A model generated the notes under the pieces. It saw only the letters and a program-made list of their open reading frames with translations. It had not been told where the DNA came from and did not search any database. A DNA stretch of 64,000 bases, from positions 930,001 to 994,000 of the forward strand of contig CM022678.1 in the NCBI GenBank assembly GCA_012295275.1. Reading direction: 5' to 3'. Source of the stretch: Chrysomallon squamiferum. Lineage: Eukaryota > Animalia > Mollusca. The translations under genes and the position numbers were made by a program. Of the stretch, positions 23,957-63,548 are shown in pieces. The first letter of the stretch is position 1; each line of letters starts with the position of its first letter.

Positions 23957-24233
23957 CTGAATAACAACATTTAAAAAAATTAGCATCTGTTTTTAATTGT
24001 TTTTAATGTATTTTAATATTTAAATATAATATTTTAACTGGTCATCAGATGTGAAGTTTTTAAAATAAAATAGCAGTTTCTTGTCATACGTTTTTTTTTC
24101 AGCAGAATCTAATGCAGATAATAAGATGTCACAATTTTAGATGGTGTAAAACTAACGAGATAAATATCTTGTTATATATGAACATCTTTCAGAAGGAAAG
24201 CAACAACAAATAAATACAAAAATTAAATAATAC

Positions 24234-24266
24234 CTCTAATGTTGGATCCTCTTTCATCAATCTTTG
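24234..24266 (-). CDS. 33-nt phase 1-1 microexon (KIDERGSNIR) of STAND-ankyrin gene 1
   Basis: tattattccag acceptor, GTATT donor, frame-compatible with neighbouring exons. Confidence 0.5.
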
Positions 24267-37222: not shown

Positions 37223-37295
37223 CAGTTTCAAATGTTTGTTGTCTTGGTACATCATTCCTTTGTTTACTATTATTTTCATTATGTTGTTTTGTCTC
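37223..37295 (-). CDS. Candidate small exon upstream of STAND copy 3 (ETKQHNENNSKQRNDVPRQQTFET; phase 0-1)
   Basis: tttatattag acceptor and a strong G|GTAAG donor; open frame ends in phase 1. Confidence 0.4.
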
Positions 37296-37520
37296 CTAAT
37301 ATAAATTTTTCTACAGCGAGATATATTTACTGTCACTCAGGTCATAGCTGTTAATGTAGTGAATGGTGGTTTCATTTCAACCATAACAAACTATCGTTCA
37401 GCATAGCACAACATTTGTGTCAACGATAATATATATATAAAACCCAACAACAAACAAACTAATGATTAATGCGAAATGGAGTTCTGTTGTCTATTAAAAA
37501 TGTTTCAGGTTTTAACTTAC

Positions 37521-37587
37521 TGGTGTCAACAGCTTCACCTTCTGATTCAATGTTCCTGTTAGTAGATTGATTTTTATGTCTGCTCAT
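37521..37587 (-). CDS. Candidate start or linker exon upstream of STAND copy 3 (MSRHKNQSTNRNIESEGEAVDT)
   Basis: GTAAGT donor at 37520, phase 1 in the ATG frame; acceptor ambiguous. Confidence 0.4.
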
Positions 37588-38358
37588 ATTTAAATATGTT
37601 CTACCACTGCTTATGTTGTCGCAAATGTAGAAAAATAAATTATTTACATTCACAGCCTACATGTAAAACATGCATATACATGTAAGATAATGAAAATGAT
37701 GATTTTAGAAGCAGTGTTCAGAAACAGGTGAAATAAAGTTTAGCAGAGAACAGTAGATCGCAGAATCCTTGGAAGTGGACTGGCTATTGGTTGACACAGG
37801 TCACATATGACATGTGGGCTTTGCATTCTGGGCAACATTAATGGTGTCAAGAATTAAACTCAGTGTTTGATTTAATGGAAAATAAGTAGTTTTGTTAGGT
37901 AATATTTACCGATGTGGTTGGTAGAAGGTCAGCACTGAACTAAAATGACTTCTAACAGTTACTGAGTGAGCTTGGTGACGTCAACTTTTCTGTTAATCAG
38001 GTTTTATATATATAGTTAGGGTTCGAAACATTTTTCGAAACAAACAAAAACACTATTTTTATCCATATTTAGACATATGACAGCATACAGTTTCACCTAC
38101 ATACACAGTGTCTCTGTCTGAATATATTTGTGTGTAAATCTGAGTAATGCATGTCTACATCTATATTTGTCTGCATGTATGTGTTCTTTGTTCTAAGTGA
38201 TGGTAGGGGTATGTATGTTTATATGTACCCTATTTATGTACACATTTAAACGTTACTCAGTTCACAGTTTGTGAAAGAAAAATACTAACGACTACTATGT
38301 ATTCTGTTATCTATTAAACATGTAGAGAAGAAAAAACAACTTTCAGTTTTTGACTTAC

Positions 38359-41300
38359 CAGTTATATAATTATATCCTTTTTGTGTAGAACAGGAATAAA
38401 ATACGTTTGATACACGTCGACCTGCTGTGAAACAGAGTAAATACATTTTTATAATTCACAACTTCAATACACAATTTCTCAAAATTCTGAGAATTAAATA
38501 TAATTACTAAATGTATTTGCATTTTTTGAAACATGAACAAACTGTTTGTATCTATATTTAGACACATGACAGAATACAGTCTCACCTACATACACTATGT
38601 CTGTGTATGAATATATTTTCGTGAATGTCTGTGTAATGCATGTCTGCATGTATATGTGTCTGCATGTTTGTGTTCTGTGTATGTGCTAAGTGTAGCAACA
38701 GCTATATGTGATTATATGTACACTATGCATTTATGTGCACATTTCAACGTTACTCAGTTCACAGTTCGTGAGAGAAATATACAAATGACTTCTATGTATT
38801 CAGTTATCTATTAAACATGTAGAGTAGAGAACACTTTCAGCATTTAACTTACTGGTTGTGTAGTTATTTCCTATTTGTGTAGAACCGGAATGAGATTTAT
38901 TTATTTGCTGTTCTCCTGCTGTGAAACAGAAAAAATACATTTTTATAATTCATAAATTCAAGGCATAATTTCCAAAACTGCAAAATCCGGAGAATTAGAT
39001 ATAATTACTAAATATATTTCATTGTTTCAAAGAACAAAAAAACTGTTTTTATCTATATTCAGACATATGAGAGAAAACAGATTCAGATTCATAAACTGTG
39101 TCTCTGTCTGAATATATTTGCGTGTATGTCTGTGTAATGCATGTCTGCATGTATATTTGTGTGCGTGAATCTGTTCTTTTTACGTGCTGAGTGATGGTAC
39201 ATGTATGTGTGTTTGTAGGCAACCAATATGTATTTAAGTGCACATTACTACCTTCCTTAGGTCACAGTTTCTTATAGAAAAATACTAATGACTACTGTGT
39301 ATTCTGTTATCTATTAGACAAGTGGTGAAGAGAAAAACGTTCAATTCTTAACTTACAGGATATGTAGTTATTTCCTATGTGTACAGAACCGGAAGGAGAT
39401 ACAACTGAATCCTGTCCTCCTGCTGTGAAACAGAGTAAATATATTTTTGTAATTCACAACTTTAATGCACAAATTGCGAAAATAATTTAAACTTAAAAAT
39501 TCTGAAAATTAAATATAATTACTAAATGTAATAGCATTTCTTCAAACTCAAACAAACTGTTTTTATCTCCATTTAGACCTAAGAGAGAAAACCGTTTCCA
39601 GTGCCTACATTGTCTCTCTTTCTGAATATATTTGCGTGTATGTCGGTGTAATGCATGCCTGCATGTATATCTGTGTGCATGTATGTGTTCTTTGTATGTG
39701 ATAAGTCATGGTAGAGGAATGCGAGTTTATGTATACTGTCACGTTTTAGTCTATATTTAGAGATATGTTAGCATGCAGATTTATATACATACTCTGTGTC
39801 TCTGTCTGAATATATGTGCGTGTATATCTGTGTAATGCATATCTGCATATATATTGTGCGCATGTACTTGTTCTATGAAAGTGCTCAGTGATTGTAGAGT
39901 ATGTACGTCTATTTGTACCCAGTCTATGAATTTATGTTCATATTTATACGTTGCTCAGGTCACAGTTTGTGAGAGACAAATACTGATGACTACTGTGTAT
40001 TCTGTTATCTATTACACATGTAGAGAAGAGAAAACTTTCAAGTTTTAACTTACCGGATTTGTAGATGTCTCTTATTTGTGTAGATCCGGAATGAGACACG
40101 TTTGGTTGCTGTCGTCCTTCTGTGAAGCAGACCAAATACGTTGTTACAACTGACAACTTCAATGCACAGTTTCTTAAAATATTTTAAACTGGTAAATTCG
40201 GACAATTAGATATAATTTTTAAGTACATTAGACTTTTTTGGAACATGAAGAAACTGTTTTAAGCTATATTTAGAGATCTGTCGGCATTCAGATTAATATA
40301 CATACTCTGCATATCTGAAAATATTTGCGAATATGCATGTGTAATGCCTGCCTCCATATATATCGGTTTTGATGTATGTGTTTTTTGTATGTACTAAGTG
40401 ATGGTACAGGTAGGTACGTTTATACATACTCTGTCTATGCATTGATGTGCACGTTTCGACATTGCTCAGACCAAAGTGTGGTATAGAAAAGTACTAATGA
40501 CTACTGTGTTTTCTTTTACCGATTAAACATCACGTGAATAGGAAACTTCAAGCTTTTAACTTACTGGAAACATATTTATCTCCTATTTGAGAAGAACCCC
40601 AATGAGATACATCTGATTGTCCTGCTGTGAAACAGAGTAAATAATTTTTTATAATTCACAACTTTAATTCACAATTTCTCAAAATATTTGAAACTGCAAA
40701 ATTCTAAGAATTAGATTATTTACTCAATGTATTAGTATTTTTTGAAACAGAAAAAAACAATCTGAATATTTGCGTGTGTAGAGGTATATATGTTTGTATG
40801 TTCACATATGTTCACAGTCTGTGCTAGACAAATACTGATGACTACTATATATTCTGTTATCTATTAGACATGTAGAGAAGACAAAACTTTCAGCTTTTTA
40901 CTCACTGGATTCACTGTTATCTCCCATCTGAGTAGTACCGGAGTGAGATACATTTGGTTCCTGTTGTCCTCCTGTGAAACAGAGAAAATACATATTTATA
41001 ATTCAGATCTTCAATGCAGAATTTCTAAAACTATTTTTAACTGTAAAATTCTCAGAAGTAGTCAAAATTACTAAACGTATTAGCATTTTTGAAACATAAA
41101 AAACCTGTTTTTATCCATATCTACAGAAATTTTAGGATGCAGGTTCCCATACATGCATTCTGTCTCTGAATATATTTTCGAGTATATCTGTGTAATGTAT
41201 GACTACATATATATTTGTGTGCATGTATGTGTTCTTTGTATACGCTCAGTGATGGCAGAGATACGTATGTTTATATGTACCCTATCTAAGTATTTATGTG

Positions 41301-44300
41301 CACATTTCTAGGTTGCTCAGATCACGGTTTGTGAGAGGAAAATACTAATGACTGTTATGTATTCTGTTATCTATTAAACATCTAGAGAAGACAAAACTTT
41401 CAATATTTACTTACCGGATTTGTAGTTATCTCCTATTTGTATAGAACCAGAATGAGACAGGTTTAATTCCTGTTTTCCTGCTGTGAAACAAAGTAAATAC
41501 ATTTTCATGATTCACAACTTCAGTGCACAATTTCTGAACTTATTTTAAAGTGCAAAATTCTGGGAAATAGATATAATTATCAAATTTATTAGCCTTTATT
41601 GAAACATACAAACATGTTTAATCTATATTTAGAGATATGTCACCATACAGATTAACATCCATGCACTGTGTCTATAAATATATTTGTGTATATCTGTGTT
41701 TTATATGCCTACATATATATGTATGTAATCTTTATATGTGCTAAGTAATGGTACAGGTAGGTACGTTTATACATACTCTGTCTATGCATTGATGTGCACG
41801 TTTCGACATTGCTCAGATCACAGTGTGGTATAGAAAAGTACTAATGACTGCTGTGTTTTCTTTTACCGATTAAATATGTAGTGACGAGAACACTTTCAGC
41901 TTTTTACTTACTTGATTCATAGTTATCTCCTATATGTGAAGAACCGGAGTGAGATACATTTGATTCCTGTTGTCCTTCTGTGAAAGACAGTAAATACATT
42001 TTTATAATTCGCAACTTCAATTCACAATTTCTAAAAATATGTTTATCTGCAAAATTCTCAAAATAGTCGTAATTACTAAATGTATTAGCATTTCTTGAAA
42101 CATGAAACCCCGTTTTTATCCATATTTAGAGAAATGTTAGAATGCAGGTTACTATACATACACTGTGTCTGAATATATTTGCGTGTTTATCTGAATAATG
42201 CATGACTGCATATATATTTGTGTGCATGTATATTTTCTTTTTATGTGCTCAGTAATGGTAGAGGTATGTATGTTTATGTGTAACCTATCTGTTTTTATGT
42301 GCACATTTCTATGCTGTTCAGGTCATAGTTTGTGAGACAAAAATACTAATGTCTACTTTGTATTCTGATATCTATTAGACATCTAGAGAAGACAAAACTT
42401 TCAGTTTTAACTTACCAGATTTGTAGTTATCTCCTATTTGTATTGATCCGGAATGAGATACGTCTGCTTTCTGTTGTCCTGCTGTAAAACAGAGAAAATA
42501 CATTGTTACATTTAACAACTTTAGCGCAGAATTTCTGAACTTATTTTAAACTGCAAAATTCTGAGAATTAGATATAATAAATAAATGTGTTAGCATTTTT
42601 GGAAATACAAACAAACTGTTTTTATCGATATTTAGACATATGATAGGATACAGTTTCAGACGTCTGCACTGTAACTCTGTGTAATGAATGTCTCCACATA
42701 TATTTGTGTGCATGTACGTGCTCTTTGTATGTGCTAAGTGACGGTAGAGGTATGTATGTTTCCATGTACCCTATCTGTGTATTTATGTGCACATTTCTAC
42801 GTTGGTCAGGTCACAGTGTGGATAGCAAAATACTGAAGACTTCTGTGTTTTCTATTATCTATTAAACTTGAAGTGAAGAGAAAACTTTCAGTTCTTAACT
42901 TACTAGACTTATAGTTATTTCCTACTTGCATACATCTGGAATGAGATCCGTTTGATTGCTGTCGTCCTGCTGTGAAAAACAGTATATACATTTTTATAAT
43001 TGACATCTTCTATGAACAATTTCTGAAAATAGTTTTAACTGCAAGATTATGAGAATTAGATATAATTACTAAAAGTATTAGAATTCTTTGAAACGTAAAG
43101 AAACTGTTTGAATCTATAATCTATATGTCAGCATGCAGATTAACATACAGACAGTGTGTCTCTGACGATATGTGCTGTATGTCTGTGAATGGATGCCTGT
43201 ATATATATTTGTGTGGATGTGTCTCTTGATTATATGTGCTAAGTGATGGTAGAGGTATGTATCTTTATGTGGACCCAGTCTATGTATTGATGTGCCTGTT
43301 TCTACGCTTCTGAGATCACAGTGTGGGATAGAATAACACTAATGACTACTGTGTTTTCTTTTACAGGTTAAACATGTTGTGCATAGGAAACTTCGGGGTT
43401 TTTACTTCCTGGGAAAATAGTTATCTCCTTTTTGAGTAGAACCGGAATGAGAGACGTTTGGCTCCTGTTGTCCTGCTGTGAGACAGAGTAAATACACTTT
43501 TATAATTCACAACTTCAACGCACATCTGTGTAATGCATGCCTGCATAGATATTTGTGTGCATGTTTGTTTTCTTTGTATGTGCTCAGTGACGTAGCGCTT
43601 TATACGTTTATATGCTCCCAATCTATATATTTATGTCAACATTCCTACGTTGCTCAGGTCACAGCTTGTTAGACAAAAATATCAATGACTACTATGTATT
43701 CTGTTTCTATGTATTCTGATAACTTTCAATGTTTAACTTACCGGATTTGTATTTATCTCCTTTTTGTGTAGATCCGGAATGAGATACGTTTGATTGCTGT
43801 CGTCCTGCTATGAAAGAGAGTAAATACATTTTTATGATTCACATCTTCAATACCCAATTTCTGAAAATATTCTTAACTGCAATATTCTCCAGATTCGACA
43901 TAATTACTAAATGTATTGGCATTTCTTGAAACATAAAAGAATAAAATTGAATCTAATTTTGGAGACACTGTGTCTCAATGTATTTGCGTCTGTGTAATTC
44001 AGGCTAGCATATCTATGTGTGTTGATGTATGTGTTCTTTGTATGTACTAAGTGATAATACAGGTATGCTTGTTTATATTACCGTGTCTATGCATTGATAT
44101 GCCTGCTTTACGTTGCTGAGAACAATGTGGGACAGAAAAATGCTAATGACTGTTGTGTTTTCTTTTATCGATTAAACATGTAGAGAAGAGAAAAAAGTTT
44201 GAGCTTTTAACTTACTGTCAGTAGATCCGGAATGAGATACGTTTGATTGTTGTTGTCCTGCTACGAAAGATAGTAAATACATTTTTATAATTCACATCTA

Positions 44301-47300
44301 AAATGCACAGTTTCTGAAAATATTTGAAACTGTAACATTCTGAGAATTAGATATAATTTCAAATGTATTAGCATTTTGTGAAACATAAGAAACCTCTTTT
44401 TCTCTATATCTAGAGATTGATATATATACACAGTGTCTCTCAGTATATTTGCGTCTAGGTTTGTGTAATGCATATATATATATATATGTGTGTGTGCGTG
44501 TGTGTGTGTGTTTGGATATATCTTTTCTTTGTATGTGCTAATTGATGGGAGAGGTATATATGTTTATATCTACTGTGTGAATGCATTTATGTGCACGTTT
44601 CTACGTTGATTAGTTCACAGTGTGGGATAGAAAAAATACTAATGACTAGTCTCTATTCCGTTATCTATTACACATGCAGAGAAGAGAAAACTTCTAAATG
44701 TATTAGTATTTTTCGATACATGAACAACCCTGTTTTTATCGATATTTAGAGATATGTTAGCATACAGATTGACATACTACACTGTGTCTCTCTCTGAATA
44801 TGTTTGTGTGTATATCTGAGTAATGGACGTCTCTATATATATTTGTGTGCACGTATATGTTCTTTGTATGTGCTCAGTGATGTAGAGGTATGTATGTTTA
44901 TATGTACCCTATCTATGATTTCACGTGCACATTTCTACGTTCTTCAGGTTACAGCTTGTGAGAAAATAACACTAATGAATTTGTATTCTGTTATCTATTA
45001 AACATGTATGGTAGAGAAAACTTTCAATGTTTAACTTACCGGATTTGTAGTTCTCTCTTATTTGTGTAGAACCGGAAAGAGATACGTTTGATTGCTGTCG
45101 TCCTGCTGTGGTATAATGTAAACACATTTTAATAATTCACAACTTCAATGCTCAATTTCTGAAAATATTTTAAACTGTAAAGTTATGAGAATTAGATTTA
45201 ATTTCAAATGTATTAGCATTTTGTGAAACATAAGAAACCTCTTTTTCTCTATATCTAGAGATTGACATATATACACAGTGTCTCTCAGTATATTTGCGTC
45301 TAGGTTTGTGTAATGCATATATATATATATGTGTGTGTGTGTTTGGATATATCTTTCTTTGTATGTGCTATTTGATGGGAGAAGTATATATGTTTATATC
45401 TACTGTCTGATTGCATTTATGTGCATGTTTCTACGTTGATCAGATCACAGTGTGAATAGTACAACACTAATGACTACTACGTATTCTTTTATTTATTACA
45501 CATGCAGAGAAGAGAAAACTTTGAATTGTTCATTTACCAGACACGCAGGTATCTCCTATGTTTGTAGAACCGGAATGATATACGTTTGATACCCGTCTTC
45601 CTCCTGTGAAACAGAGTAAATATATTTTTCGAAATTTTCAAATTCAATTCACATATTCTGAAAATATTTTTAAGTGCAAAATTCTCGAATTGGATATAAT
45701 TACCAAAAGTATTATCATTTTTGAACGATAAAGAAACTATTTTTATCTATATTTAGAGATATGTCAGCATGCAGATTAACATACTTACACTATATCTCTG
45801 TCTCAATATATTTGCTTGTTTATGTGTGTAACGCATTTCTGCATATATATTTGATTGGATGTATGTGCTATTTCTTTGTGCTAAGTAATGGTACACGTAT
45901 TTATGTTTATATGGACCCTATCAATACTTATGTGCTCATTTCTACGTTGCCCAGGTCATAGTTGGCGATAGTAAAATACTAATGACTAGTCAGTGTTCTT
46001 TTATTGATTAAACATGTGCTGATGAGAACACTTTCAATTTTTAACTTACGGGTTGTGTAGTTATTTCCTATTTGTGTAGAACCGGAATGAGATTTGTTCA
46101 GTTTCTGTAGACTTGCTGTGAAACAGAGTAAATACATTTTTATAATTCATAAATTCAAGGCAGAATGTCTGAAAATATTTTAAACTGCAAAATTCTGAGA
46201 ATGACATATAATTATTAAACGTATTAGCATTTTTGAATGAGAAAGGAACAGTTTTAATATCTATTTAGAGATATGTCAGCATGTAGAAAGACATACATAC
46301 AGTAAGACTCTGAATATATTTGCGTATATGCCTGCATATCTATGTGTGTGAATATATGTGTTCTTTGTAAGAGCTAACTGATGGTACAGGTAGGTATGTT
46401 TATATTACAGTCTCTATGCATTTATGTGCACGTTACTACGTTGATCCGATCACAGTGTGGGATAGAAAAATACTAATGACTACTGTGTTTTCTTTTATCT
46501 ATTATACATGCAGAGAAGATAAAACTTTGAATTTTTAACTTACACGATATGAAGTTATCTCCTATTTGAGTAAAACCGGAATGAGGTACATTTGATTCCT
46601 GTATTCCTCCTGTGAGACAGAGTAAATACATTTTTACGATTCACAATATCAATGCACATTTATCAAAATATCTTAAACTGGAATATTCTGAGAATTAGGT
46701 ATAATTACTAAAAGTTATTTGCGTTTTTGGAAAGATAAAAATAAACAAATTTCTTCTATATTTAGAGATATGTTAGCATATAGATTAAAATACATACACT
46801 GTGTCTCTGTCTGAATATATGTGCGTGTATATCTGTGCAATGCAATGCATATCTGCATATATATTGTGCGCATGTACTTGTTCTTTGAAAGTGCTCAGTG
46901 ATTGTAGAGTATGTACGTCTATTTGTACCCAATCTATGAATTTATGTTCATATTTATACGTTTCTCAGGTCACAGTTTGTGAGAGACAAATACTGATGAC
47001 TACTGTGTATTCTGTTATCTATTAGACATGTAGAGATGAGAAAACTTTCAAGTTTTAACTTACCGGATTTGTAGTTGTCTCTTATTTGTGTAGATCCGGA
47101 ATGAGATACGTTTGGTTGCTGTCGTCCTTCTGTGAAGCAGACCAAATACGTTGTTACAACTGACAACTTCAATGCACAGTTTCTTAAAATATTTTAAACT
47201 GGTAAATTCGGACAATTAGATATAATTTTTAAGTACATTAGACTTTTTTGAACATGCAGATTAATATACGCACCCTGCGTATCTGAACATATTTGCGTAT

Positions 47301-50300
47301 ATATGTCTGTGTAATGCATGCCTGCATATAGATGTGTTTTGATGTATGTGCTTTTTGTATGTACTAAGTGATGGTACAGGTAGGTATGTTTATATATACT
47401 CTGTCTATGCATTGATGTGCACGTTTCGACATTGCTCAGATCACAGCGTGGTATAGAAAAGTACTAATGACTACTGTGTTTTCTTTTACCGGTTAAACAT
47501 CACGTGAATAGGAAACTTTTAGCTTTTAACTTAATTAATATGTAGTTATCTCCTATTTTAGTAGAACCGGAATGAAATACTTTTGATTGCTGTTGTCCTG
47601 CTGTGAGACAGAGTAAATACATTTTATAATTCACAACTATTGAAAATGTCTCAAGATATTTGAAAGTGCAAAATTCTAAGAATTAGATATAATTATTAAA
47701 TGTATTAGTACTTTTTGAAACAGAAAAAAACCCTGTTTTTTGACAATATTTTGAGATACGTTAGCATGGAGATTGACATATATACACTGTGTCTCTGTCT
47801 GAATATATTTGCGTTTATATCTTAGAAACACATGTATGTGGTTTTTGTTTGGTCTAAGTGATGTAGAGGTGTGTTAGTTTATATGTACCTATCTATGAAT
47901 TTAATTGCACATTTCTACGTTGCTCAGACGAGAGTTTGTGAAAGAATAAGACTAATGACTATTATATATTCTGTTTTCTATTAAACACGTAGAGTAGAGA
48001 AATCTTTCAATGTTACTTACCGGATTTGTATTTATCTCCTTTTTGTGTAGAACCGGAATGAGATACGTTTGATTCCTGTCGTCCTGCTGTGAAACAGAAT
48101 AAATATATTTTTACAATTCACAACTTAAATGTACCATTTCTGAAAATATTTAAAGTTCAAAATTCTGAGAATTAGTCATAACTAGTAAATGTATTAGCAT
48201 TTATTGAACAGTAAAGAAACTGTTTTATTTTATATTCACAGATATGTCAGCAGGTAGATTAACCTACATATACAGTGTGTCTGAATACATTTGCATATAT
48301 GTCTGTGTAATGCATATATATATATATATATGTATGCGTGTGTGTGTGTGTGTGTCGATGTATGTGCTCTTTATAATGTCGTAAGTGATGGTAGAGGTAT
48401 GTATGTTTATATTACCGTTTCTATGCATTGACATTGCTCAGTTCACAGTGAGGAATATAAAAATGCTTATGACTACTATATTTTCTTTTACCGAATAAAC
48501 ATGTACTGAAGTTAAAAATTATCTGCTGTTAACTTACCGGATTTCTTGTTATCTCCTATCTGAGTAGATCCGGAATGAGACAAGTTTGATTCCTGTTGTC
48601 CTGCTGTAAAACAGAGAAAATACATTTTTATAATTCACAACTTCAATGCACAATTTCTGAAAATATTTTAACTGGAAAATTCTCTGAATTCGATATAATT
48701 ATTAAATGAATTAACACTTTTTAAAACATAATAAACCGATTTTTTATCCATATTTAGAAATATATTAGCATGCAGATTGACATACATACACTGTTTCGAA
48801 GTCTGAATATATTTGCGTGTATGTCAGTGTAATGTATGTCTGCATATATATTTTTGTCCATGTACGTGTTCTTCGTATGTGCTCAGAGATGGTAGATGTA
48901 TGTATGTTTATATGTACCCTAACTACGTATTGATGTGCACATATCTACCTTGTTCAGGTCACAGTTGTGAGACAAAAATACTAATGAATACTATGTATTC
49001 TTATATCTATTAGATATGTAGTGAAGAGAAAACTTTCAATTTTTATCTTACCGGATTTGTAGTCGTCTCCTACGTGTTTAGAACCGGAATGAGATGCGTT
49101 TGATTGCTGTCGTCCTCCTATGAAAGATAGTAAATACATTTTCATAAATCACAACTTCAATGCACTATTTTTGACAATATTTTTAACTGCAAAATTCTGA
49201 GAATTAGATATAATTTCTAAATGTATTAGCCTTTTCTTGAAACACAAATAAACCGTTTTCATCTATATTAAAAGATATGTCATCACGCATATAAACATAC
49301 ATACACTGTTTCTCACAATATATATTGCGTATATGTTTGTGTAATGAGTGTCTTCATATATATTTGTGCGCATGTATTTGTTCTTAGTATGTGCTCAGTG
49401 TTGGTATAGGTATGTACGTTTATATGCATCCTATCTATGAATTTATGTTCACATTTCTACGTGGCTCGGGTAACAGTTTGTGAGAGAAAAATACTAATGA
49501 CTATTGTGTATTCTGATATGTGTTAGACATGTAGTGAAGAGAAAACGTTCAGTTTTAACTTACCAGATTTGTAGTTGTCTCCTATTTGTATTGATCCGGA
49601 ATGAGATACGTCTGCTTTCTGTCCTGCTGTAAAACAGAGAAAATACATTGCTACAATTCACAACTTCATTGCACAATTTCTTAAAATATTTTAAACTGTT
49701 AAATTTTGAGAATTAGATATAATTATTAAATGTATTAGATTTTTTTGAAATATGAAGAAAATGTTTTAATATATATTTACAGATATGTCAGCATGTAGAT
49801 TAACATAAATACACTGCGTATCTGAAAATATTTGCGTATGTGTCTGTGTAATTTATTCCTCCATATATATGCTATTGGATGTATCCCTATTTTTCTGTGT
49901 GTGCTAAGTGATTTTAGAGGTATGTATGTTTATCTTACCCTGTCTGTGCATTGATGTGCCTGTTTCTACGCTGGTCTGATCACAGTGTGGTATAGAAAAA
50001 TACTAATGACTACTAGACATCTAGTAAAGAGAACACTTTCAATTTTTAACTTACCGGATTTGTAATTATCTCCTATTTGTGTAGATCCGAATGAGATCCG
50101 TTTGATTGCTGTCGTCCTGCAGTAAAATAAAATAAATACATTGTTACAATTCACAACTTCAGTGCACGATTTCTGAAATGTTTTTTAAACTGCAACATTC
50201 TCAGAATTAGATATAATTACTAAATGTTTTCCATTTTCAGAAACATAAAAACCCTATTTTAATCCATATTTAGAGATATGTTAGCATGCTGTTTGACATA

Positions 50301-51879
50301 TATACACTGTGTCTCTGAATATATTTTCGTGTATAGCCTTGTAATGTATGACTGAAGTTATATCTGTGTGCATGTATGTGTTCTTTGTATGTGCTAAGTG
50401 GTGGTAGAGGTATGCATATTTATATGTACCCTATCTATGTATTTATGAGCTCATTTCTACGTTGATCAGGTCGCAGTTTGTGAGAGAAAAGTACTAATGA
50501 CTACCATGTATTTTGTTATGTATAAGGCAAGTAGAAAAGAGAAAAGTTTAAATTTTCAACTTACCGGATTTGTAGTTATCTCCTATTTGTGTAGCTTCGG
50601 ACTGAGATCCGTTTGATTGCTGTTGACCTGCTGTTATAACAGAGCGCATATATTTTTATAGTTCACAATTCAATGTAAATTTCTGAACATATTTTTAACT
50701 CCAAAATTCTGAGAATTATATATAATTCCTAAATGTAAGAGCATTTTCTGAAACATAAAGAAACAGTTTTAATATATATTTGGAATTACGTCAGGATGCA
50801 GATTAACATACGTGCTCAGTGTCTCTGAATATATTTGGGTGTATGTGTGTGTAACGCATGCTCATTTATATATGCGTGAATGTGTGTGTTAGTTTAGTGT
50901 GTAAAGTGATGGTAGCGGCATGTATGTTTGTATGTACGGTGTTTATGCATTGTGTGCTCGTTTCTACGTCGCTCAGATCACAGTGTGGGATAGAAACATA
51001 CTAATCACTACTGTGTTTGGTTTTACCAATTAAATATGTAGTAACGAGAAAACTTCGAGCTTTTGACTTACTCGATACAAAGCTATGTCCTATTTGAGTA
51101 GAACCGGAATGAGATACATTTGATTCCTGAGGTCCTGCTGTGAAACAGAGTTAATTCATTTTTATAATTCACAAATTCAATACACAATTTCTCAAGATAT
51201 TTTAAACTGCAAGTTTCTCAGCATTACATATAATTATTAAATGTATTAGCATTTTTTTAAATATAAAAATATTGTTTTTATCCATATTTAGAGACATGTT
51301 AGGATGCAGATTGACATACACACATTCTGTCTCTGTCTGAATATATTTACGTGTGTATCTGAGTAATTCATGTCTGCATATATATTTGTGTGCATGTATG
51401 TTTTCTTTGTTTGTTATAAGTGATGGTAGAGGTATGTATGTTTATGTGTACCCTATATATGTATTCGTGAGCACATTTCTACATTGTCCGGGTCACAGTT
51501 TGTGAGATAAGAATACTAATGAATACTACGTTTTCTGTTATGCATTAGACATGTAGAGAAGAGAAAACTGTCAATTTTAACTTACCTGATGTGTAGTTAT
51601 CACCTATTCGTGTAGAACTGGAATGAGATTCGTTTGATTGCCGTTGACCTCCTGTGACACACAGTAAATAAATATTTATATAATTCACAATTTCAGTTCA
51701 CAATTTCTGAAAATATTTTAAACTGCAAAAATCTGAGAATTAGATATAATTATTAAATGTATTAGCATTTTCTGAAAGAAACAAAAACCTTCTGTTATAT
51801 ATTTAGAGATATGTCAGCATTCAGATTAACATGCATACACGCCTATATGTCTGTGTAATGCATGCCTTCATATATATAC

Positions 51880-51943
<64 letters not shown>

Positions 51944-54900
51944 TGTATCTATTCTTTGTATGTGCTAAGTGATGGTACAGGTAGGTACGTTTATACATAC
52001 TCTGTCTATGCATTGATGTGCACGTTTCGACATTGCTCAGATCACAGTGTGGTATAGAAAAGTACTAATGACTGCTGTGTTTTCTTTTACCGATTAAATA
52101 TGTAGTGACGAGAACACTTTGAGATTTGTACTTACTCGATACAGAGTTATCTCCTAGCTGTGTAGAACCGAATGAGATACCTTCGACTCCTGTTGTCCTG
52201 CTATGAAACAGAGTAAATACATTTTGTAATTCACAACTTCAATTCACAATTTCTCAAAATATTTTAAACTATAAAATTCTGAGAGTTAGTTATAATAACT
52301 AAATGTACTAGCTTTATCTGAAACACAAAAAACTATTTTTCTCTATATTTAAAAAGATGTTAGCATGCAGATTGACATACATACATTGTGTCTCTCAATA
52401 TATTCGCGTGTATCTCTGTGTAATGCATGTGTGCATATATGTGTGTGTGGATGAATCTGTTCTTTGTATGTGCTAACTGATCGTAGAGGTATATATGTTT
52501 ATATTACCGTGCCTATGCATTTATGTGCATGTTTCTATGTTGATCAGATCACAGTGTGAATAGTACAACACTAATGACTACTACGTATTCTTTTATTTAT
52601 TACACATGCAGAGAAGAGAAAACTGTGAATTGTTCATTTACCAGATACGCAGTTATCTCCTATGTTTGTAGAACCGGAATGATATACGTTTGACACCTGT
52701 TCTCCTTCTGTGAAACAGAGTAAATATATTATTATAATTCACAATTTGATTCCACAGTTTCTGAAAAATGTTTAAGTGCACAATTCTCAGAATTAGACAT
52801 AAGTACCAAATGTATTAGCAATTTATGAAACACAAATAAACTGTTTTCACCTATATTTAGAGATATGTCAGCATAGAGATTAAAATACATAGACTGTGTC
52901 TGTGTCTGAATATTTTATGTGTATATATGTGTAATGCATGTCTGCAAATATATTTGTGTGCATGTACGTGTTCTTTGTATGTGCTAAGTGGTGGTAGAGG
53001 TATGTATGTTTATATGTACCCTATCTATGTATTTATGTGCACATTTCTACGTTGCTCGGGTCACAGTTGTGGTAGAAAAATACTAATGACTACTGTGTAT
53101 TCTGTTATCTATTAAACAAGTGGTGATGAGAAAAACGTTCAATTCTTAACTTACCGGATATGAAGTTATCCCCTATTTGTGTAGAACCGGAATGAGATAC
53201 CTTTAATTCCTGTTTTCCTGCTGTGAAACAAAGAAAATATATTTTTATAATTCACAACTTCAATGAACAATTTCTGAAAATATTTTAAACTGCAAAATTC
53301 TGAGAATTAGATATAATCAATAAATATATTAACATTTTTCGAAAGATAAAGAAACTGTTTTAATCTCTATTTAGATATACATCAGAATGCAGATTAACAT
53401 ACATACACTGCCTCTCTGAATATATATGCGTATATGTCTGTTGAATGTATGGCTGCATATATATGTATCCTATCTATGTATTTATGTTCACATTCCTAAG
53501 TTGCTCAGGTCATAGATTGAGATAGAAAAATACTGACTACTATGTATTCTGTCATCTATTAAACATGTAGAGAAGACAAAACTTTTAGTATTTAACCTAC
53601 TGGATATGTAGTTATCTCCTATTTGTGTAAAACCGGAATGAGGTACTTTTGATTGCAGCTCTCCTGCTGTGAAAGACAGTAAATACATTTTTATAATTCA
53701 CAAGTTCAATTGACAATTTCTGAAAATATTTTTAAGTGCAAAATTTTCAGAATTAGACATAAATGTCAAATGTATTAGCATTTTCTGTAACATAAATAAA
53801 CCGTTTTTATCAATATTTAAAAATATCTTAGCATGCATTTTGAAACACGTACATTGTGTCTCTGTCTGAATATATTTGCATGTATATGTGTAATGCATGT
53901 CTGTATATATATTTATGTGCATGCATGTGTTCTTTTTATGTTCTCAGTGATGGTATGTTCTGTTATATGGATGAATTTAAGAGCACATTTCTACGTAGCT
54001 CAGGTCACAGTTTGTGAGAGAAATATACTGATGACTACTATGTATTCCGTTATGTATTAGACATAGTAGTTACGGAATGAGATATGTTTAATTCCTGTTC
54101 TCCTGCGGTGAAACATAGTAAATATATTTTTGTAATTCACAAATTCAATTTACAATTTCTGAAAATATTTTAACCTGCAAAATTTTGAGAATTAGATATA
54201 ATTATTAAAACGATTAGGATTTTTGGAAACATAAAGATACCCTATTAATTGATATTTAGAGATATGTAATTATGTAAATTAACATATATACACTGTGTCT
54301 CTATTTGAACATATTTACGTATATGTCTGTGCAATCTTTGCCTGCATATATAACTGTGTAGATGTATCTATCCTTTGTTCGTGCTAAGTAATGGTACAGG
54401 TATTTGTGTTGATATGTACCACCTCTATGTATTTCTGTGTCGTTTCTACATTGTGCAGGTCACAGTGTGGGATAGAAAAATACTAATGACTACTGTGTTT
54501 TCTTTCAATTATTAAACATATGATTAGAAAACTTTTAACTTACTGGATACAAAATGATCTCCTATTTGAGCAGAACCGGAATGAGATACATTTGGTTCCT
54601 GTTGTCCTTCTGTGAAACAGAGTAAAAACATCTTTATAATTCACAAATTCAACTCACAATTTATGAAAATATTCTTAAGTGCAAAATTCTTACAGTTAGT
54701 CATAATTACTAAATTTATTAGTTTTTTTTTCTTTTTAAACATAAAAAAATCTGGTTTTTTCTATATTTAGAAATATATTAACATGCAGATTGACATACAT
54801 AAACTGTGTCTATATCTGATAATACATGTCTGCATATGTATTTGTGTGCATGTAAGTGTTCTTTGTACCTGCTCAGTTATGGTAGAGATATGTATGTTTA

Positions 54901-57900
54901 TATGTACCCTATCAATATTTATGTGCACATTTCACGTTGCTCAGGTAACAGTTTAAGAGAGAAAAATAGTAATGACTATTGTGTATTCTGACATCTATGA
55001 GACGTAGTGAAGAGAAAACTTTCTGTTTCTAACTTACCGGATTTGTAGTTGTCTCCTATTTGTGTAGATCCGGAATGAGACAAGTTTGCTTTCTGTTGTC
55101 CTGCTGTAAAACAGAGAAAATACATTTTTATAATTCACAACTTCAATGCACAATTTCTGAAAATATTTTAACTGGAAAATTCTCTGAATTCGATATAATT
55201 ATTAAATGAATTAACACTTTTTAAAACATAATAAACCGATTTTTTATCCATATTTAGAAATATATTAGCATGCAGATTGACATACATACACTGTTTCGAA
55301 GTCTGAATATATTTGCGTGTATGTCAGTGTAATGTATGTCTGCATATATATTTTTGTCCATGTACGTGTTCTTCGTATGTGCTCAGAGATGGTAGATGTA
55401 TGTATGTTTATATGTACCCTAACTACGTATTGATGTGCACATATCTACCTTGTTCAGGTCACAGTTGTGAGACAAAAATACTAATGAATACTATGTATTC
55501 TTATATCTATTAGATATGTAGTGAAGAGAAAACTTTCAATTTTTATCTTACCGGATTTGTAGTCGTCTCCTACGTGTTTAGAACCGGAATGAGATGCGTT
55601 TGATTGCTGTCGTCCTCCTATGAAAGATAGTAAATACATTTTCATAAATCACAACTTCAATGCACTATTTTTGACAATATTTTTAACTGCAAAATTCTGA
55701 GAATTAGATATAATTTCTAAATGTATTAGCTTTTTCTTGAAACACAAATACACCGTTTTCATCTATATTAAAAGATATGTCATCACGCATATAAACATAC
55801 ATACACTGTTTCTCTCAATATATATTGCGTATATGTTTGTGTAATGAGTGTCTTCATATATATTTGTGCGCATGTATTTGTTCTTAGTATGTGCTCAGTG
55901 TTGGTACAAGTATGTACGTTTATATGCATCCTATCTATGAATTTATGTTCACATTTCTACGTGGCTCGTGTAACAGTTTGTGAGAGAAAAATACTAATGA
56001 CTATTGTGTATTCTGATATGTGTTAGACATGTAGTGAAGAGAAAACGTTCAGTTTTAACTTACCAGATTTGTAGTTGTCTCCTATTTGTATTGATCCGGA
56101 ATGAGATACGTCTGCTTTCTGTCCTGCTGTAAAACAGAGAAAATACATTGCTACAATTCACAACTTCATTGCACAATTTCTTAAAATATTTTAAACTGTT
56201 AAATTTTGAGAATTAGATATAATTATTAAATGTATTAGATTTTTTTGAAATATGAAGAAAATGTTTTAATATATATTTACAGATATGTCAGCATGTAGAT
56301 TAACATAAATACACTGCGTATCTGAAAATATTTGCGTATGTGTCTGTGTAATTTATTCCTCCATATATATGCTATTGGATGTATCCCTTTTTTCTGTGTG
56401 TGCTAAGTGATTTTAGAGGTATGTATGTTTATCTTACCCTGTCTGTGCATTGATGTGCCTGTTTCTACGCTGGTCTGATCACAGTGTGGTATAGAAAAAT
56501 ACTAATGACTACTAGACATCTAGTAAAGAGAACACTTTCAATTTTTAACTTACCGGATTTGTAATTATCTCCTATTTGTGTAGATCCGGAATGAGATCCG
56601 TTTGATTGCTGTCGTCCTGCAGTAAAATAAAATAAATACATTGTTACAATTCACAACTTCAGTGCACGATTTCTGAAATGTTTTTAAACTGCAACATTCT
56701 CAGAATTAGATATAATTACTAAATGTTTTCCATTTTCAGAAACATAAAAAACCCTATTTTAATCCATATTTAGAGATATGTTAGCATGCTGTTTGACATA
56801 TATACACTGTGTCTCTGAATATATTTTCGTGTATAGCCTTGTAATGTATGACTGAAGTTATATCTGTGTGCATGTATGTGTTCTTTGTATGTGCTAAGTG
56901 GTGGTAGAGGTATGCATATTTATATGTACCCTATCTATGTATTTATGAGCTCATTTCTACGTTGATCAGGTCGCAGTTTGTGAGAGAAAAGTACTAATGA
57001 CTACCATGTATTTTGTTATGTATAAGGCAAGTAGAAAAGAGAAAAGTTTAAATTTTCAACTTACCGGATTTGTAGTTATCTCCTATTTGTGTAGCTTCGG
57101 ACTGAGATCCGTTTGATTGCTGTTGACCTGCTGTTATAACAGAGCGCATATATTTTTATAGTTCACAATTCAATGTAAATTTCTGAACATATTTTTAACT
57201 CCAAAATTCTGAGAATTATATATAATTCCTAAATGTAAGAGCATTTTCTGAAACATAAAGAAACAGTTTTAATATATATTTGGAATTACGTCAGGATGCA
57301 GATTAACATACGTGCTCAGTGTCTCTGAATATATTTGGGTGTATGTGTGTGTAACGCATGCTCATTTATATATGCGTGAATGTGTGTGTTAGTTTAGTGT
57401 GTAAAGTGATGGTAGCGGCATGTATGTTTGTATGTACGGTGTTTATGCATTGTGTGCTCGTTTCTACGTCGCTCAGATCACAGTGTGGGATAGAAACATA
57501 CTAATCACTACTGTGTTTGGTTTTACCAATTAAATATGTAGTAACGAGAAAACTTCGAGCTTTTGACTTACTCGATACAAAGCTATGTCCTATTTGAGTA
57601 GAACCGGAATGAGATACATTTGATTCCTGAGGTCCTGCTGTGAAACAGAGTTAATTCATTTTTATAATTCACAAATTCAATACACAATTTCTCAAGATAT
57701 TTTAAACTGCAAGTTTCTCAGCATTACATATAATTATTAAATGTATTAGCATTTTTTTAAATATAAAAATATTGTTTTTATCCATATTTAGAGACATGTT
57801 AGGATGCAGATTGACATACACACATTCTGTCTCTGTCTGAATATATTTACGTGTGTATCTGAGTAATTCATGTCTGCATATATATTTGTGTGCATGTATG

Positions 57901-58380
57901 TTTTCTTTGTTTGTTATAAGTGATGGTAGAGGTATGTATGTTTATGTGTACCCTATATATGTATTCGTGAGCACATTTCTACATTGTCCGGGTCACAGTT
58001 TGTGAGATAAGAATACTAATGAATACTACGTTTTCTGTTATGCATTAGACATGTAGAGAAGAGAAAACTGTCAATTTTTAACTTACCTGATGTGTAGTTA
58101 TCACCTATTCGTGTAGAACTGGAATGAGATTCGTTTGATTGCCGTTGACCTCCTGTGACACACAGTAAATAAATATTTATATAATTCACAATTTCAGTTC
58201 ACAATTTCTGAAAATATTTTAAACTGCAAAAATCTGAGAATTAGATATAATTATTAAATGTATTAGCATTTTCTGAAAGAAACAAAAACCTTCTGTTATA
58301 TATTTAGAGATATGTCAGCATTCAGATTAACATGCATACACGCCTATATGTCTGTGTAATGCATGCCTTCATATATATAC

Positions 58381-58446
<66 letters not shown>

Positions 58447-61400
58447 TGTATCTATTCTTTGTATGTGCTAAGTGATGGTACAGGTAGGTACGTTTATACA
58501 TACTCTGTCTATGCATTGATGTGCACGTTTCGACATTGCTCAGATCACAGTGTGGTATAGAAAAGTACTAATGACTGCTGTGTTTTCTTTTACCGATTAA
58601 ATATGTAGTGACGAGAACACTTTGAGATTTGTACTTACTCGATACAGAGTTATCTCCTAGCTGTGTAGAACCGGAATGAGATACCTTCGACTCCTGTTGT
58701 CCTGCTATGAAACAGAGTAAATACATTTTTGTAATTCACAACTTCAATTCACAATTTCTCAAAATATTTTAAACTATAAAATTCTGAGAGTTAGTTATAA
58801 TAACTAAATGTACTAGCTTTATCTGAAACACAAAAAACTATTTTTCTCTATATTTAAAAAGATGTTAGCATGCAGATTGACATACATACATTGTGTCTCT
58901 CAATATATTCGCGTGTATCTCTGTGTAATGCATGTGTGCATATATGTGTGTGTGGATGAATCTGTTCTTTGTATGTGCTAACTGATCGTAGAGGTATATA
59001 TGTTTATATTACCGTGCCTATGCATTTATGTGCATGTTTCTATGTTGATCAGATCACAGTGTGAATAGTACAACACTAATGACTACTACGTATTCTTTTA
59101 TTTATTACACATGCAGAGAAGAGAAAACTGTGAATTGTTCATTTACCAGATACGCAGTTATCTCCTATGTTTGTAGAACCGGAATGATATACGTTTGACA
59201 CCTGTTCTCCTTCTGTGAAACAGAGTAAATATATTATTATAATTCACAATTTGATTCCACAGTTTCTGAAAAAATGTTTAAGTGCACAATTCTCAGAATT
59301 AGACATAAGTACCAAATGTATTAGCAATTTATGAAACACAAATAAACTGTTTTCACCTATATTTAGAGATATGTCAGCATAGAGATTAAAATACATAGAC
59401 TGTGTCTGTGTCTGAATATTTTTATGTGTATATATGTGTAATGCATGTCTGCAAATATATTTGTGTGCATGTACGTGTTCTTTGTATGTGCTAAGTGGTG
59501 GTAGAGGTATGTATGTTTATATGTACCCTATCTATGTATTTATGTGCACATTTCTACGTTGCTCGGGTCACAGTTGTGGTAGAAAAATACTAATGACTAC
59601 TGTGTATTCTGTTATCTATTAAACAAGTGGTGATGAGAAAAACGTTCAATTCTTAACTTACCGGATATGAAGTTATCCCCTATTTGTGTAGAACCGGAAT
59701 GAGATACCTTTAATTCCTGTTTTCCTGCTGTGAAACAAAGAAAATATATTTTTATAATTCACAACTTCAATGAACAATTTCTGAAAATATTTTAAACTGC
59801 AAAATTCTGAGAATTAGATATAATCAATAAATATATTAACATTTTTCGAAAGATAAAGAAACTGTTTTAATCTCTATTTAGATATACATCAGAATGCAGA
59901 TTAACATACATACACTGCCTCTCTGAATATATATGCGTATATGTCTGTTGAATGTATGGCTGCATATATATGTATCCTATCTATGTATTTATGTTCACAT
60001 TCCTAAGTTGCTCAGGTCATAGATTGAGATAGAAAAATACTGACTACTATGTATTCTGTCATCTATTAAACATGTAGAGAAGACAAAACTTTTAGTATTT
60101 AACCTACTGGATATGTAGTTATCTCCTATTTGTGTAGAACCGGAATGAGGTACTTTTGATTGCTGCTCTCCTGCTGTGAAAGACAGTAAATACATTTTTA
60201 TAATTCACAAGTTCAATTGACAATTTCTGAAAATATTTTTAAGTGCAAAATTTTCCGAATTAGACATAAATGTCAAATGTATTAGCATTTTCTGTAACAT
60301 AAATAAACCGTTTTTATCAATATTTAAAAATATCTTAGCATGCATTTTGAAACACGTACATTGTGTCTCTGTCTGAATATATTTGCATGTATATGTGTAA
60401 TGCATGTCTGTATATATATTTATGTGCATCCATATGTTCTTTGTATGTTCAGAGTAAATAATTTTTATAATTCACAACTTCAATGCCCAGTTTTTGAAAA
60501 TATTTTAAACTATAGAATTCTGAGAATTAGATATAATTATTAAATTTATTATTATTTTTCGAAACGTAAAGAAACTGTTTTAATCTATATTTACAGACAT
60601 GTCAGCGTGCAGATTAACACACATACACTGTTATTTCTATATGTAACTTTCTTTATCTATATGTAGAGATATGACAGCCTGCAGTTTAATATATATACAC
60701 CGTGTCTCTGTTTGAATATATTTGTGTGCATGTCTGTGTATGGATGTCTGCATATACATTTACAGGTATGTATGTTTATATGTACTCTGTCTATGTATGT
60801 TTATATGTACTCTGTCTATATATGTTTATATGTACTGTGTTTGTATATGTCTATATGTACTGTGTCTACGTATGTTTATATGTACTGTGTCTATGTATGG
60901 TTATATGTACTGTGTCTATATATGTTTGTACATACTGTGTCTATATATGTTTATATGTACTGTGTCTCTGTAGTTATGTGCACGTTTGTATGTTTTTCAG
61001 GTCACAGTGTGTGGCGGATAATTACTAATCACTACTATGTATTCTGTTATCAATTAAACAGGTAGACAAGAGAAAACATTTAGTTTTTGACTTACTGGAT
61101 TCCCAATTTTCTCCTATTTGTGTAGAACCGGAATAAAATGGGTTTGATAGCTGATGTCTGGCTGTGAAGCAGATTAAACACATATTTATAATTCACAACT
61201 TCAATGCACAGTTTCCGAAAATATTTTTAACAGCAAAATTTAGTGTGGGATAGAAAGATAGTAATAATTATTGTGTTTTCTTTTTCCTGATAAACATGTA
61301 GAGAAGAGAAAACTTTCAGTTTTTAACTTACCGGATTCCCAAATTTCTCCTATTTGTGTAGAACTGGAATGAAATGGGTTTGATAGCTGATGTCTGACTG

Positions 61401-63548
61401 TGAAACAGATTAAACACATATTTATAATTCACAACTTCAATACACAATTTCTGAAAGACTTTTTACGCTACAGATTCTGAATTAATTCTTAAATGTAGTA
61501 GCACTTTTTGAAGCAGGAAACACTGTTTTTAATCGATATGTAGAGATATGACAGCATGTTCTGCTTGAATATATCTGAGTGTATGTGTATATGTATATTT
61601 GTGCATATGTATCGATTCTGTGTTTCTGCTAAGTGTAGATACAGGTCTGTGTGATTATATGTATTGTGTCTATACATAGAGTGTGTGACGTAAAAATACT
61701 AATCACAACTATGTATTCTGGTATCTATTAAACATGTAGACACGAGAAAACTTTTAGTTTTTAGCTTACCGGATTCTTCGTTGTCTTCTGTTTCAGTAGA
61801 ATCAGAATCAGATTCTTCTGCTGGGGACTTTCCTAGAATGAAAAATAGTGAATACATTTTTATAATTCGTAATTTCTTTATGCCTAATTTCTCCAAAAAA
61901 TGTTTGACCTACAACATTCTGAGAGTTATATACTACTGTAAAATGATCTAGTACTTTTTGAAAGAGAAAAACGAATATTTTTATCTATATGTAGAGATAT
62001 GACAGCATACAGTTTAACATATATAGACTGCGTCTCTGTTTGAATATATTTATGTGTATGTTTGTGTAATGCATGTGTACATGCGTATGTGTGTGTGTAT
62101 GTTTCTGTCCTGTGCTAAGTCTGGGTACAGGTATAGGTTCATATGTACTGTGTCTATGCATGTTTATATTTACTGTGTCTATGTTTGTTTATATTTACTG
62201 TGTCTATGTATTTATGTGCACGTTTCTATTTGTTCAAGTCACAGTTTTGTGAGAGAAAAATACTAATCACTACTATGAATTCTGTTATCAATGAAACAGG
62301 TAGACCAGAGAAAAGTTTCAGCTTTTAACTTACTGGATTCGGGGTCATCTTCTGTTTGATTAGAATCGGAATCAGATACATCTGCTGGTACCGGATCTGT
62401 AGTGAAACAAAGTAAATACTTTTTTTATAATTAGCAACTTCAATGTATAATTTCTGAAAATATTTCTACCTCAAACATAGATATAATTGTTGGATATAGT
62501 AGCACTTTTTTTAATCACAAAAAACTTTTTTTATCTATATGTAGAGATATGACAGCCTGCAGTTTAATATATATACACCGTGTCTCTGTTTGAATATATT
62601 TGTGTGCATGTCTGTGTATGGATGTCTGCATATACATTTATAGGTATGTCTTTTTATATTTACTGTGTCTATGTATGTTTATATGTACTGAGTTTATGTA
62701 TGTCTATATGTACTGTGTCTATATATGTTTATATGTACTCTGTCTATGTATGTTTATATGTACTCTGTCTATATATGTTTATATGTACTGTGTTTGTATA
62801 TGTCTATATGTACTGTGTCTACGTATGTTTATATGTACTGTGTCTATGTATGGTTATATGTACTGTGTCTATATATGTTTGTACATACTGTGTCTATATA
62901 TGTTTATATGTACTGTGTCTCTGTAGTTATGTGCACGTTTGTATGTTTTCAGGTCACAGTGTGTGGCGGATAATTACTAATCACTACTATGTATTCTGTT
63001 ATCAATTAAACAGGTAGACAAGAGAAAACATTTAGTTTTTGACTTACTGGATTCCCAATTTTCTCCTATTTGTGTAGAACCGGAATAAAATGGGTTTGAT
63101 AGCTGATGTCTGGCTGTGAAACAGATTAAACACATAATTATAATTCACAACTTCAATACACAATTTCTGAAAGACTTTTTACGCTACAGATTCTGAATTA
63201 ATTCTTAAATGTAGTAGCACTTTTTGAAGCAGGAAACACTGTTTTTAATCGATATGTAGAGATATGACAGCATGTTCTGCTTGAATATATCTGAGTGTAT
63301 GTGTATATGTATATTTGTGCATATGTATCGATTCTGTGTTTCTGCTAAGTGTAGATACAGGTCTGTGTGATTATATGTATTGTGTCTATACATAGAGTGT
63401 GTGACGTAAAAATACTAATCACAACTATGTATTCTGGTATCTATTAAACATGTAGACACGAGAAAACTTTTAGTTTTTAGCTTACCGGATTCTTCGTTGT
63501 CTTTTGTTTCAGTAGAATCAGAATCAGATTCTTCTGCTGGGGACTTTT
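38359..63548 (-). CDS. Array of ~50 tandem symmetric (phase 1-1) micro-exons, mostly 66 nt, encoding a 22-aa repeat (consensus AGQQxSNVSHSGSTQIGDNYKS); continues beyond the window
   Basis: Each ~0.5-kb unit has tttcacag|CAGGA...ATCCG|gtaagtt on the minus strand. Examples: 38359-38424, 38853-38918, 39357-39422, 40054-40119, 40565-40624, 40906-40971, 41415-41480, 41912-41977, 42416-42481, 42904-42969, 43742-43807, 44216-44260, 45040-45105, 45538-45603, 46050-46115, 46544-46609, 47064-47129, 48021-48086, 48538-48603, 49052-49117, 49564-49626, 50565-50630, 51072-51137, 51586-51651, 52642-52707, 53155-53220, 53601-53666, 54544-54609, 55038-55103, ...60108-60173, 61096-61161, 61332-61397, 61770-61832, 62334-62396, 63048-63113, 63486-63548. 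I found no stop codon in the phase-1 frame of any copy I translated. Confidence 0.82.
48570..60430. repeat. Recent near-identical duplication, ~48570-53930 repeated at ~55070-60430 (offset ~6500)
   Basis: Identical ORF-track peptides at 48813/55313, 52927/59434 and 53698/60205; line-by-line identity. Confidence 0.93.

Follow-up and report, generated by a model that had tools for sequence, protein, structure and literature searches.

A stretch of 64,000 nucleotides (nt) from the mollusc Chrysomallon squamiferum (GenBank assembly GCA_012295275.1, contig CM022678.1, positions 930,001 to 994,000), hereafter called the window and numbered from its first letter, is a eukaryotic, microsatellite-bearing sequence with 30% G+C. 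Its minus strand carries a long array of mini-exons, each encoding one copy of a repeat of about 22 residues, followed by a large exon for a nucleoside triphosphatase (NTPase) of the nSTAND3 family and ankyrin repeats (Table 1). The array is made of real coding exons and, judged from its sequence, the repeat has a likeness to the amyloid-signalling motif RHIM that is real but partial.

Table 1. Features of the window bearing on the array and on the nSTAND3-ankyrin genes.
Feature	Positions	Strand	Remarks
Mini-exon array, 51 units of ~500 bp (intron plus exon)	38359..63548	-	continues beyond the right window edge
Distal part of the array with three derived acidic 63-nt exons (63548-63486, 62396-62334, 61832-61770)	61770..63548	-	
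Near-identical block of 11-12 units, twin of ~55100-60450	48600..53940	-	frameshifted exons at 52200 and 50116
Best RHIM-like exon	41415..41480	-	L, L, I and I at the four tetrad offsets; IQIG
VHIG exon (cRHIM-type VxxG)	39357..39422	-	PF17108 HET-S, E 0.006, 16.9 bits (cut-off 24.3)
Two decayed exon-like segments	37223..37624	-	good donors at 37520 and 37222; no usable in-frame acceptor
Large phase-1 exon: nSTAND3 NTPase, helical region, ankyrin repeats	34351..36905	-	
Third nSTAND3 fragment, internally deleted, plus upstream remnants	23601..24729	-	fragment itself 24002-23601
Second nSTAND3-ankyrin copy, four open frames split by small frameshifts, long ankyrin tail	17640..22863	-	

Units of the array were located with a 161-nt probe, and the 51 copies follow one another at a spacing of mostly 435-550 bp. 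In each unit, a pyrimidine tract and an AG precede about 66 nt of exon, which a GTAAG-type donor closes; the phase is 1 at both ends. Forty-five of them hold an intact mini-exon (AG and GT flanked, stop-free, 45-66 nt, a multiple of 3), with lengths of 60-66 nt except for one of 45 nt, whereas two units are truncated, two have no donor and two bear a 1-nt deletion. Owing to phase 1-1 and a length that is a multiple of 3, any mini-exon could be skipped in frame. An original prediction, made from the letters alone, had placed the array at 38853..61397. A repeat array is indeed present there and the five peptides quoted from it were all recovered, in minus-strand exons 41480-41415, 42481-42416, 49626-49564, 39422-39357 and 42969-42904, but the range was too small for the 51 units. 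No other copy of the repeat exon was found in window positions 1-38300.

Two blocks of the array, 48600-53940 and 55100-60450, recur with a 6.5-kb period and differ mostly by 1-nt indels in base runs. Each of the two 1-nt exon deletions falls in the first block (~48.6-53.9 kb, near-identical to 55.1-60.4 kb) and is the loss of one base at a shared CCGG site, hinting at a sequencing error. The first block looks like a very recent duplication or an assembly duplicate, with single-base indels of the kind expected from long-read error, and if it is a duplicated assembly segment, the true count of units in the window may be about 40. The tree of the units is star-like; with all copies derived from a single unit, the motif counts as one observation on an ancestor and not as dozens. 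The three distal acidic exons, rich in S, D and E and with an acceptor shifted by 3 nt, resemble the acidic linkers of Gigantopelta homologs of the neighbouring protein.

The coding nature of the array was assessed on 39 units, after removal of 11 from the duplicate block and of one truncated unit. The aligned AG is present in 35 of these, the other four using an AG 3 nt further in, and a GT donor in 37. No in-frame stop occurs in the 36 gap-free exons, against 53% expected for the majority sequence mutated at intron rates; the corresponding binomial P of 1e-12 is overstated because the copies are related. In the two remaining forward frames, stops occur in 27/30 and 22/30 exons. Exons contain three distinct indels, of 3, 6 and 21 nt, all frame-keeping; the intron flanks contain 54, mostly of 1-2 nt, 25 of them being of a single nucleotide. 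Together with the adjoining nSTAND3 exon, the absence of stops and the frame-keeping indels bear out the predicted arrangement of one repeat per exon beside an NLR-like STAND-ankyrin exon.

Related sequence occurs in three RNA runs (X1-X3) of one study, with a shared-word fraction of 0.04-0.06; the low RNA cover over the array was set aside and not used as evidence. Among the joints listed, intron-free exon-to-exon joints are found in X3 (43786-43417, 43786-42427, 42481-46552 and 48580-41423) and in X1 (47114-47081), with periods, counted by hand from the exon coordinates, of 66, 66, 66 and 57 nt in X3 and 63 nt in X1. The joined contigs derive from paralogs or alleles, as their letters differ from the window. 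The X2 joints listed retain intron sequence and represent unspliced RNA or DNA. A non-coding satellite, considered as another identity for the array, is ruled out by the stop, indel and splice-site tests and by the spliced RNA contigs.

Downstream of the array, a 2.55-kb open frame (36918-34351, minus strand) matches nSTAND3 with 87.9 bits (cut-off 27.2, E 7e-25), and the C-terminal repeat sensor is made of ankyrins (Ank_2, 89 bits). This exon has 855 open codons with intact Walker A (GxPGSGKT) and Walker B (DD) motifs, the residues G38, G41-T45, D88 and D89 being invariant in 7 sequences. Array and NTPase exon share a strand and are separated by a 1.45-kb gap, with a phase-1 donor leading to a phase-1 acceptor at 36905; strand, distance and matching phase suggest that they are linked. 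In the two decayed exon-like segments between them, one acceptor reads CAT and the other segment has an in-frame stop. Hundreds of RNA contigs (X1-X3) cover 34400-36900 with 85-99% identity to the nSTAND3-ankyrin exon, which indicates a large expressed paralog family. Within the window, the second copy (22863-17640) is 85% identical in DNA to the first and has no intact repeat array in front, and the third fragment is preceded by a candidate exon of 33 nt (24266-24234) and by an array-intron remnant (24729-24635, 77%, E 3e-15). Structure models of the big exon were modest (predicted local distance difference test scores of 66 and 59), and fold searches with them returned ankyrins and generic AAA+/STAND proteins including Avs4, EfAvs5 and Dark, and nothing on the repeats.

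In a homolog search that scored the ~8,000 best word-sharing candidates, the closest were four proteins of Gigantopelta aegis (P0001-P0004) and one of Haliotis rufescens (P0005), at 30-45% identity. These gastropod proteins share the nSTAND3 domain, the helical region and the repeats, but the mini-exon repeat array is found in none of the five. A regular expression for the aliphatic tetrad plus G-x-N retrieved nothing before Walker A in them. Just before nSTAND3, P0002 (~400-420, LNFGGNA) and P0003 (~345-365, MTFGENT) have Gly-containing hydrophobic stretches that by eye are like cryptic RHIM or other amyloid motifs, with no Pfam match. A third homolog search, with long ankyrin proteins from other organisms as its matches, was uninformative. 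For the repeat itself, an exon-profile search of 1.84 billion representatives gave one match, P0006, with an unrelated repeat; neither a DNA-pattern scan of metagenomes nor one with the NTPase protein gave a match, and ESM Atlas had no row of 0.9 or higher. In the literature searched (nSTAND3, mollusc STAND-ankyrin or RHIM, gastropod NLR microexons, with few subscription journals), no such array is described, and the excerpt of PMC8195603 does not mention RHIM.

Selection on the repeat was estimated both pairwise and with codon models. Pairwise ratios of nonsynonymous to synonymous rates among 30 distinct exons are 0.78 overall, 0.58 in codons 13-18, 0.44 in codons 19-21 and ~1.0 in codons 1-12. 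In codon models, fitted to a fixed tree of 33 units from which six units with acidic exons or damaged donors were excluded, the corresponding ratio, omega, is 0.67 overall, 0.85 in codons 1-6, 0.89 in 7-12, 0.37 in 13-18 and 0.41 in 19-21. Under the Goldman-Yang model, twice the log-likelihood difference from an omega of 1 is 5.2, 0.2, 0.1, 7.2 and 5.8, respectively, and that of codons 13-18 is 4.5 under the Muse-Gaut model. A core no more conserved than its flanks, named in the original prediction as what would speak against it, is thus not what is seen on the N-terminal side, whereas the tail is as constrained as the core. Rates at first plus second codon positions are 2.7 both in codons 7-12 and in 13-18, 4.4 in 1-6 and ~4.0 in introns, codons 7-12 being as slow as the core despite their near-neutral omega. 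Identity at these positions is 0.88 for Q-I-G and 0.76 for introns (P 0.02, six windows having been tried). The most constant residues are S10, G1, S21 and G16, with Q14 and I15 middling. The repeat is thus under genuine but mild constraint, concentrated at the core (T-Q-I-G-D-N) and the tail.

The commonest residues of the repeat are V7, T13, Q14, I15, G16, D17 and N18, and its register V-x5-T-Q-I-G-D-N matches I452...V458-Q459-V460-G461-D462-N463 of RIPK3. In a deep mutagenesis of RIPK3, V450, I452, V458 and V460 were essential for nucleation, G461, D462 and N463 coming next (bioRxiv 10.64898/2026.02.19.706818). At these tetrad positions the usual exon bears S, V, T and I, then G-D-N. A strict (V/I)-Q-(V/I/L/C)-G tetrad occurs in 4/41 exons, TQ[IVLM]G in 19/41 and VxxG in 1/41, and IQIG is present in four exons. 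The pattern V-x5-[TVILM]-Q-[VILM]-G, chosen post hoc, is found in 0.04% of random 22-mers of the same composition. The exact motif [TIVM][QH][IVL]G[DN]N, ascribed in the original prediction to most copies, occurs in only 19/41 exons, or 19/45 when the 45-nt exon and the three acidic ones, all lacking it, are included. Its caveat that T usually stands first is softened by lamprey RIPK3, whose natural tetrad is TQIG, and in human RIPK3 this tetrad leaves ZBP1-dependent death normal; in addition, zebra mussel RIPK1 bears a RHIM (PMC12119088).

A Pfam scan of 37 exon-only peptides against 24,736 families (E<=10), run without a shuffled control, gave matches limited to RHIM (1/37) and PF17108 HET-S (2/37). 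The single HET-S profile is listed among amyloid-motif profiles, and profile hidden Markov models are said to be weak for such motifs (PMC12261475). A HET-s rung has 21 residues, and HET-s motifs on the NLR side are richer in S and H (PMC4518210); over 41 exons the array has 19% hydrophobic residues, 21% S, 13% G, 11% Q and 5% H, with a net charge near zero. Measured against the HET-s-type HRAM pattern, the arch Gly (position 19) is kept in 38/44 exons as G16, and hydrophobic residues occupy usually two of positions 5, 8, 10, 16 and 18 and at best four, in one exon. The N-x-S/T sequon occurs in 23/41 exons. A glycosylated mucin was considered on this ground and rejected, nothing indicating an extracellular position.

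Fungal NWD2/HET-S systems and bacterial BASS NLRs resemble the array in placing a short N/Q/G/S-rich motif of ~21-22 residues before a STAND NTPase and a C-terminal repeat sensor, and they combine one motif with an adjacent effector gene that shares it (PMC4518210; 10.1101/2020.01.06.895854). Here, there are 40+ copies, one per exon, the NTPase is nSTAND3 and not NACHT or NB-ARC, the hydrophobic pattern of HRAM is mostly absent, and no such effector is seen in the window. Metazoan RHIM proteins (RIPK1, RIPK3, ZBP1, TRIF) share the register V-x5-(T/I)-Q-I-G-D-N; they carry 1-3 motifs per protein, and the RHIM-NACHT protein BF82280 of amphioxus, with its motif before the NTPase, is a precedent for an animal NLR-like host architecture (PMC4262963). 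The array differs from them in usually having S at the first tetrad position and T at the third, in the lack of a G before the core and in not reaching the Pfam cut-off. Drosophila Pirk/Rudra, an inhibitor, has several short RHIM-like repeats like half a RHIM (PMC4262963), which raises a decoy reading for the attenuated repeats of the array. Pirk/Rudra has no NTPase or ankyrins and far fewer repeats, and is likened to the array by description, not by sequence comparison. Bacterial Avs5 shares nSTAND3, but its N-terminus is a Sir2 enzyme (10.1101/2025.07.08.663546).

Taken together, these data can be read as a coding array that is likely spliced to the nSTAND3-ankyrin exon and gives an NLR-like receptor a long N-terminal tail of 40+ weak RHIM-like motifs, acting as a multivalent amyloid-type nucleation scaffold, a tentative reading to which we assign a probability of about 45%. 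Oligomerisation of the NTPase is general behaviour of STAND proteins. Ligand binding at the ankyrins would free the NTPase to oligomerise; in the clustered tails, beta-arches of V-x5-T-Q-I-G-D-N could then stack and serve as a template for a RHIM-bearing partner, for example a molluscan RIPK1-like kinase. As most copies are attenuated, with T first and two of the four aliphatic positions, copy number would offset weakness, a few strong copies such as 41480-41415 being likely seeds. In a bolder version, which we consider rather unlikely, the receptor would have 40+ RHIM-type rungs, one per frame-symmetric exon, with a strength that ranges from high, where IQIG and the full tetrad are present, down to none in the acidic exons; skipping of exons and unequal crossing-over would then tune amyloid nucleation.

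A number of results weigh against the nucleation scaffold. The sole RHIM match (PF12721; 41416-41478, profile positions 4-17, E 0.098) reaches 12.7 bits for a cut-off of 20, and the HET-S matches, at 16.9 and 13.4 bits, stay below theirs of 24.3; with the intron flanks added, exon 41415-41480 matches EAD10 (E 0.17) and the RHIM match is lost. The signature G-phi-Q-phi-G of RHIM, PP and BASS3 (PMC7885112; 10.1101/2020.01.06.895854) occurs in 0/41 exons. Aliphatic residues at offsets -8, -6, 0 and +2 are complete in 1/44 exons, number three in 6 and two or fewer in 37. Thus, the RHIM-like core of the original prediction stands as sub-threshold RHIM and HET-S matches, whereas formal membership is not supported by the cut-offs, by the full aliphatic tetrad or by G-phi-Q-phi-G; by the tests made the repeat is not a RHIM or HET-s member and resembles an attenuated RHIM in its register. 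In 6/41 exons the core is broken by K or R while the frame is kept, and the three acidic exons have lost it while keeping splice sites and frame. Overall omega is only 0.67, and for codons 7-12, V7 among them, it is close to neutral. Human RIPK3 with TQIG does not activate NF-kB (PMC12119088). Searches of the PDB with the exon profile and the best exon gave no RIPK or HET-s chain, only chance matches to antibody loops. In the gastropod homologs, an unrelated acidic linker precedes nSTAND3, in two of them after a hydrophobic, membrane-helix-like N-terminus, and the exon profile has no match in any of the five. No join of a repeat exon to the NTPase exon is found among the RNA joints listed, and loose ends of RNA contigs at 36901, the NTPase acceptor, carry a different, non-repeat short exon, by eye like the 33-nt candidate exon. 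Finally, the frame of the NTPase exon ends early, at 34351, where 5 nt are deleted in comparison with the second copy; decayed ankyrin sequence and more breaks lie beyond, and truncation or decay of the locus is thus possible.

Several of these results are also what would be expected if the array encoded a disordered S/G/Q/N spacer grown by exon duplication, its frame kept by a working protein and its RHIM likeness accidental or a decaying relic. We regard this as possible and as a serious contender, considering the low hydrophobic and high S, G and Q content, the weak overall constraint with codons 1-12 near 0.9, the tolerance of K/R breaks and acidic exons, the unrelated disordered linkers of P0002 and P0003 at this place (one with 15-residue repeats of its own) and the derivation of the motif from a single ancestral event, chosen after the fact. 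A mere spacer accounts less well for selection concentrated on core and tail, for Pfam matches confined to amyloid-signalling motifs and for the rarity, even if post hoc, of the pattern in random 22-mers.

Whether the array belongs to a working nSTAND3 protein at all is a separate matter, since it could be part of another transcript or of a recent pseudogene with marks of past selection. The early end and the disruptions of the NTPase frame, the decay of both exon-like segments in between, the non-repeat exon at the loose ends and a gene 5' end beyond the window agree with this; the shared strand, short gap and matched phase, the 855 open codons with intact Walker motifs, the array-intron remnant also ahead of the neighbouring nSTAND3 fragment and the many 1-nt breaks that look like long-read errors make it unlikely. 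A stable single-chain beta-solenoid rod, with one exon per rung and serving as spacer or binding surface and not as a switchable amyloid, would explain the constant 22-residue period near that of HET-s, the retention of G16, the candidate N and Q ladders at 6, 14 and 18 and the near-zero net charge. It appears very unlikely, given that usually two of the five HRAM core positions are hydrophobic, that prolines, charged substitutions and deletions of 3-21 nt are tolerated and that no solenoid family or structure was matched in Pfam, PDB or ESM Atlas.

Fungal and bacterial NLRs are established users of amyloid signalling; among animals it has been proposed only for a few proteins, and in every case the motifs number one to three. 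The receptor at this locus may have a long, possibly splice-adjustable tail used for signalling. If the scaffold reading is true, a mollusc STAND receptor with dozens of RHIM-like variants would extend amyloid signalling to lophotrochozoan immunity, and the array would offer a natural series, from full tetrad to none, for asking whether many weak motifs can replace one strong motif. Should the array be a mere linker, an nSTAND3 family that is so far unstudied would still show an unusual expansion, one exon at a time.

Elsewhere in the window, exons for Ras-family (E 2e-9) and DnaJ (E 1e-20) domains lie on the plus strand at 5934-10929, the DnaJ exon being present in three tandem copies (10378-10929); this is probably a Rab-plus-DnaJ gene of the DNAJC27/RBJ type. 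A long minisatellite at 4034-5952 has stop-free minus-strand frames and is probably non-coding. A higher-GC insert on the minus strand (23040-23560), between the nSTAND3 fragment and the second copy, is possibly a mobile element. Between both nSTAND3 genes, the region 29600-31900 holds three to four copies of a ~600-bp unit with long AAT and CTT microsatellites.

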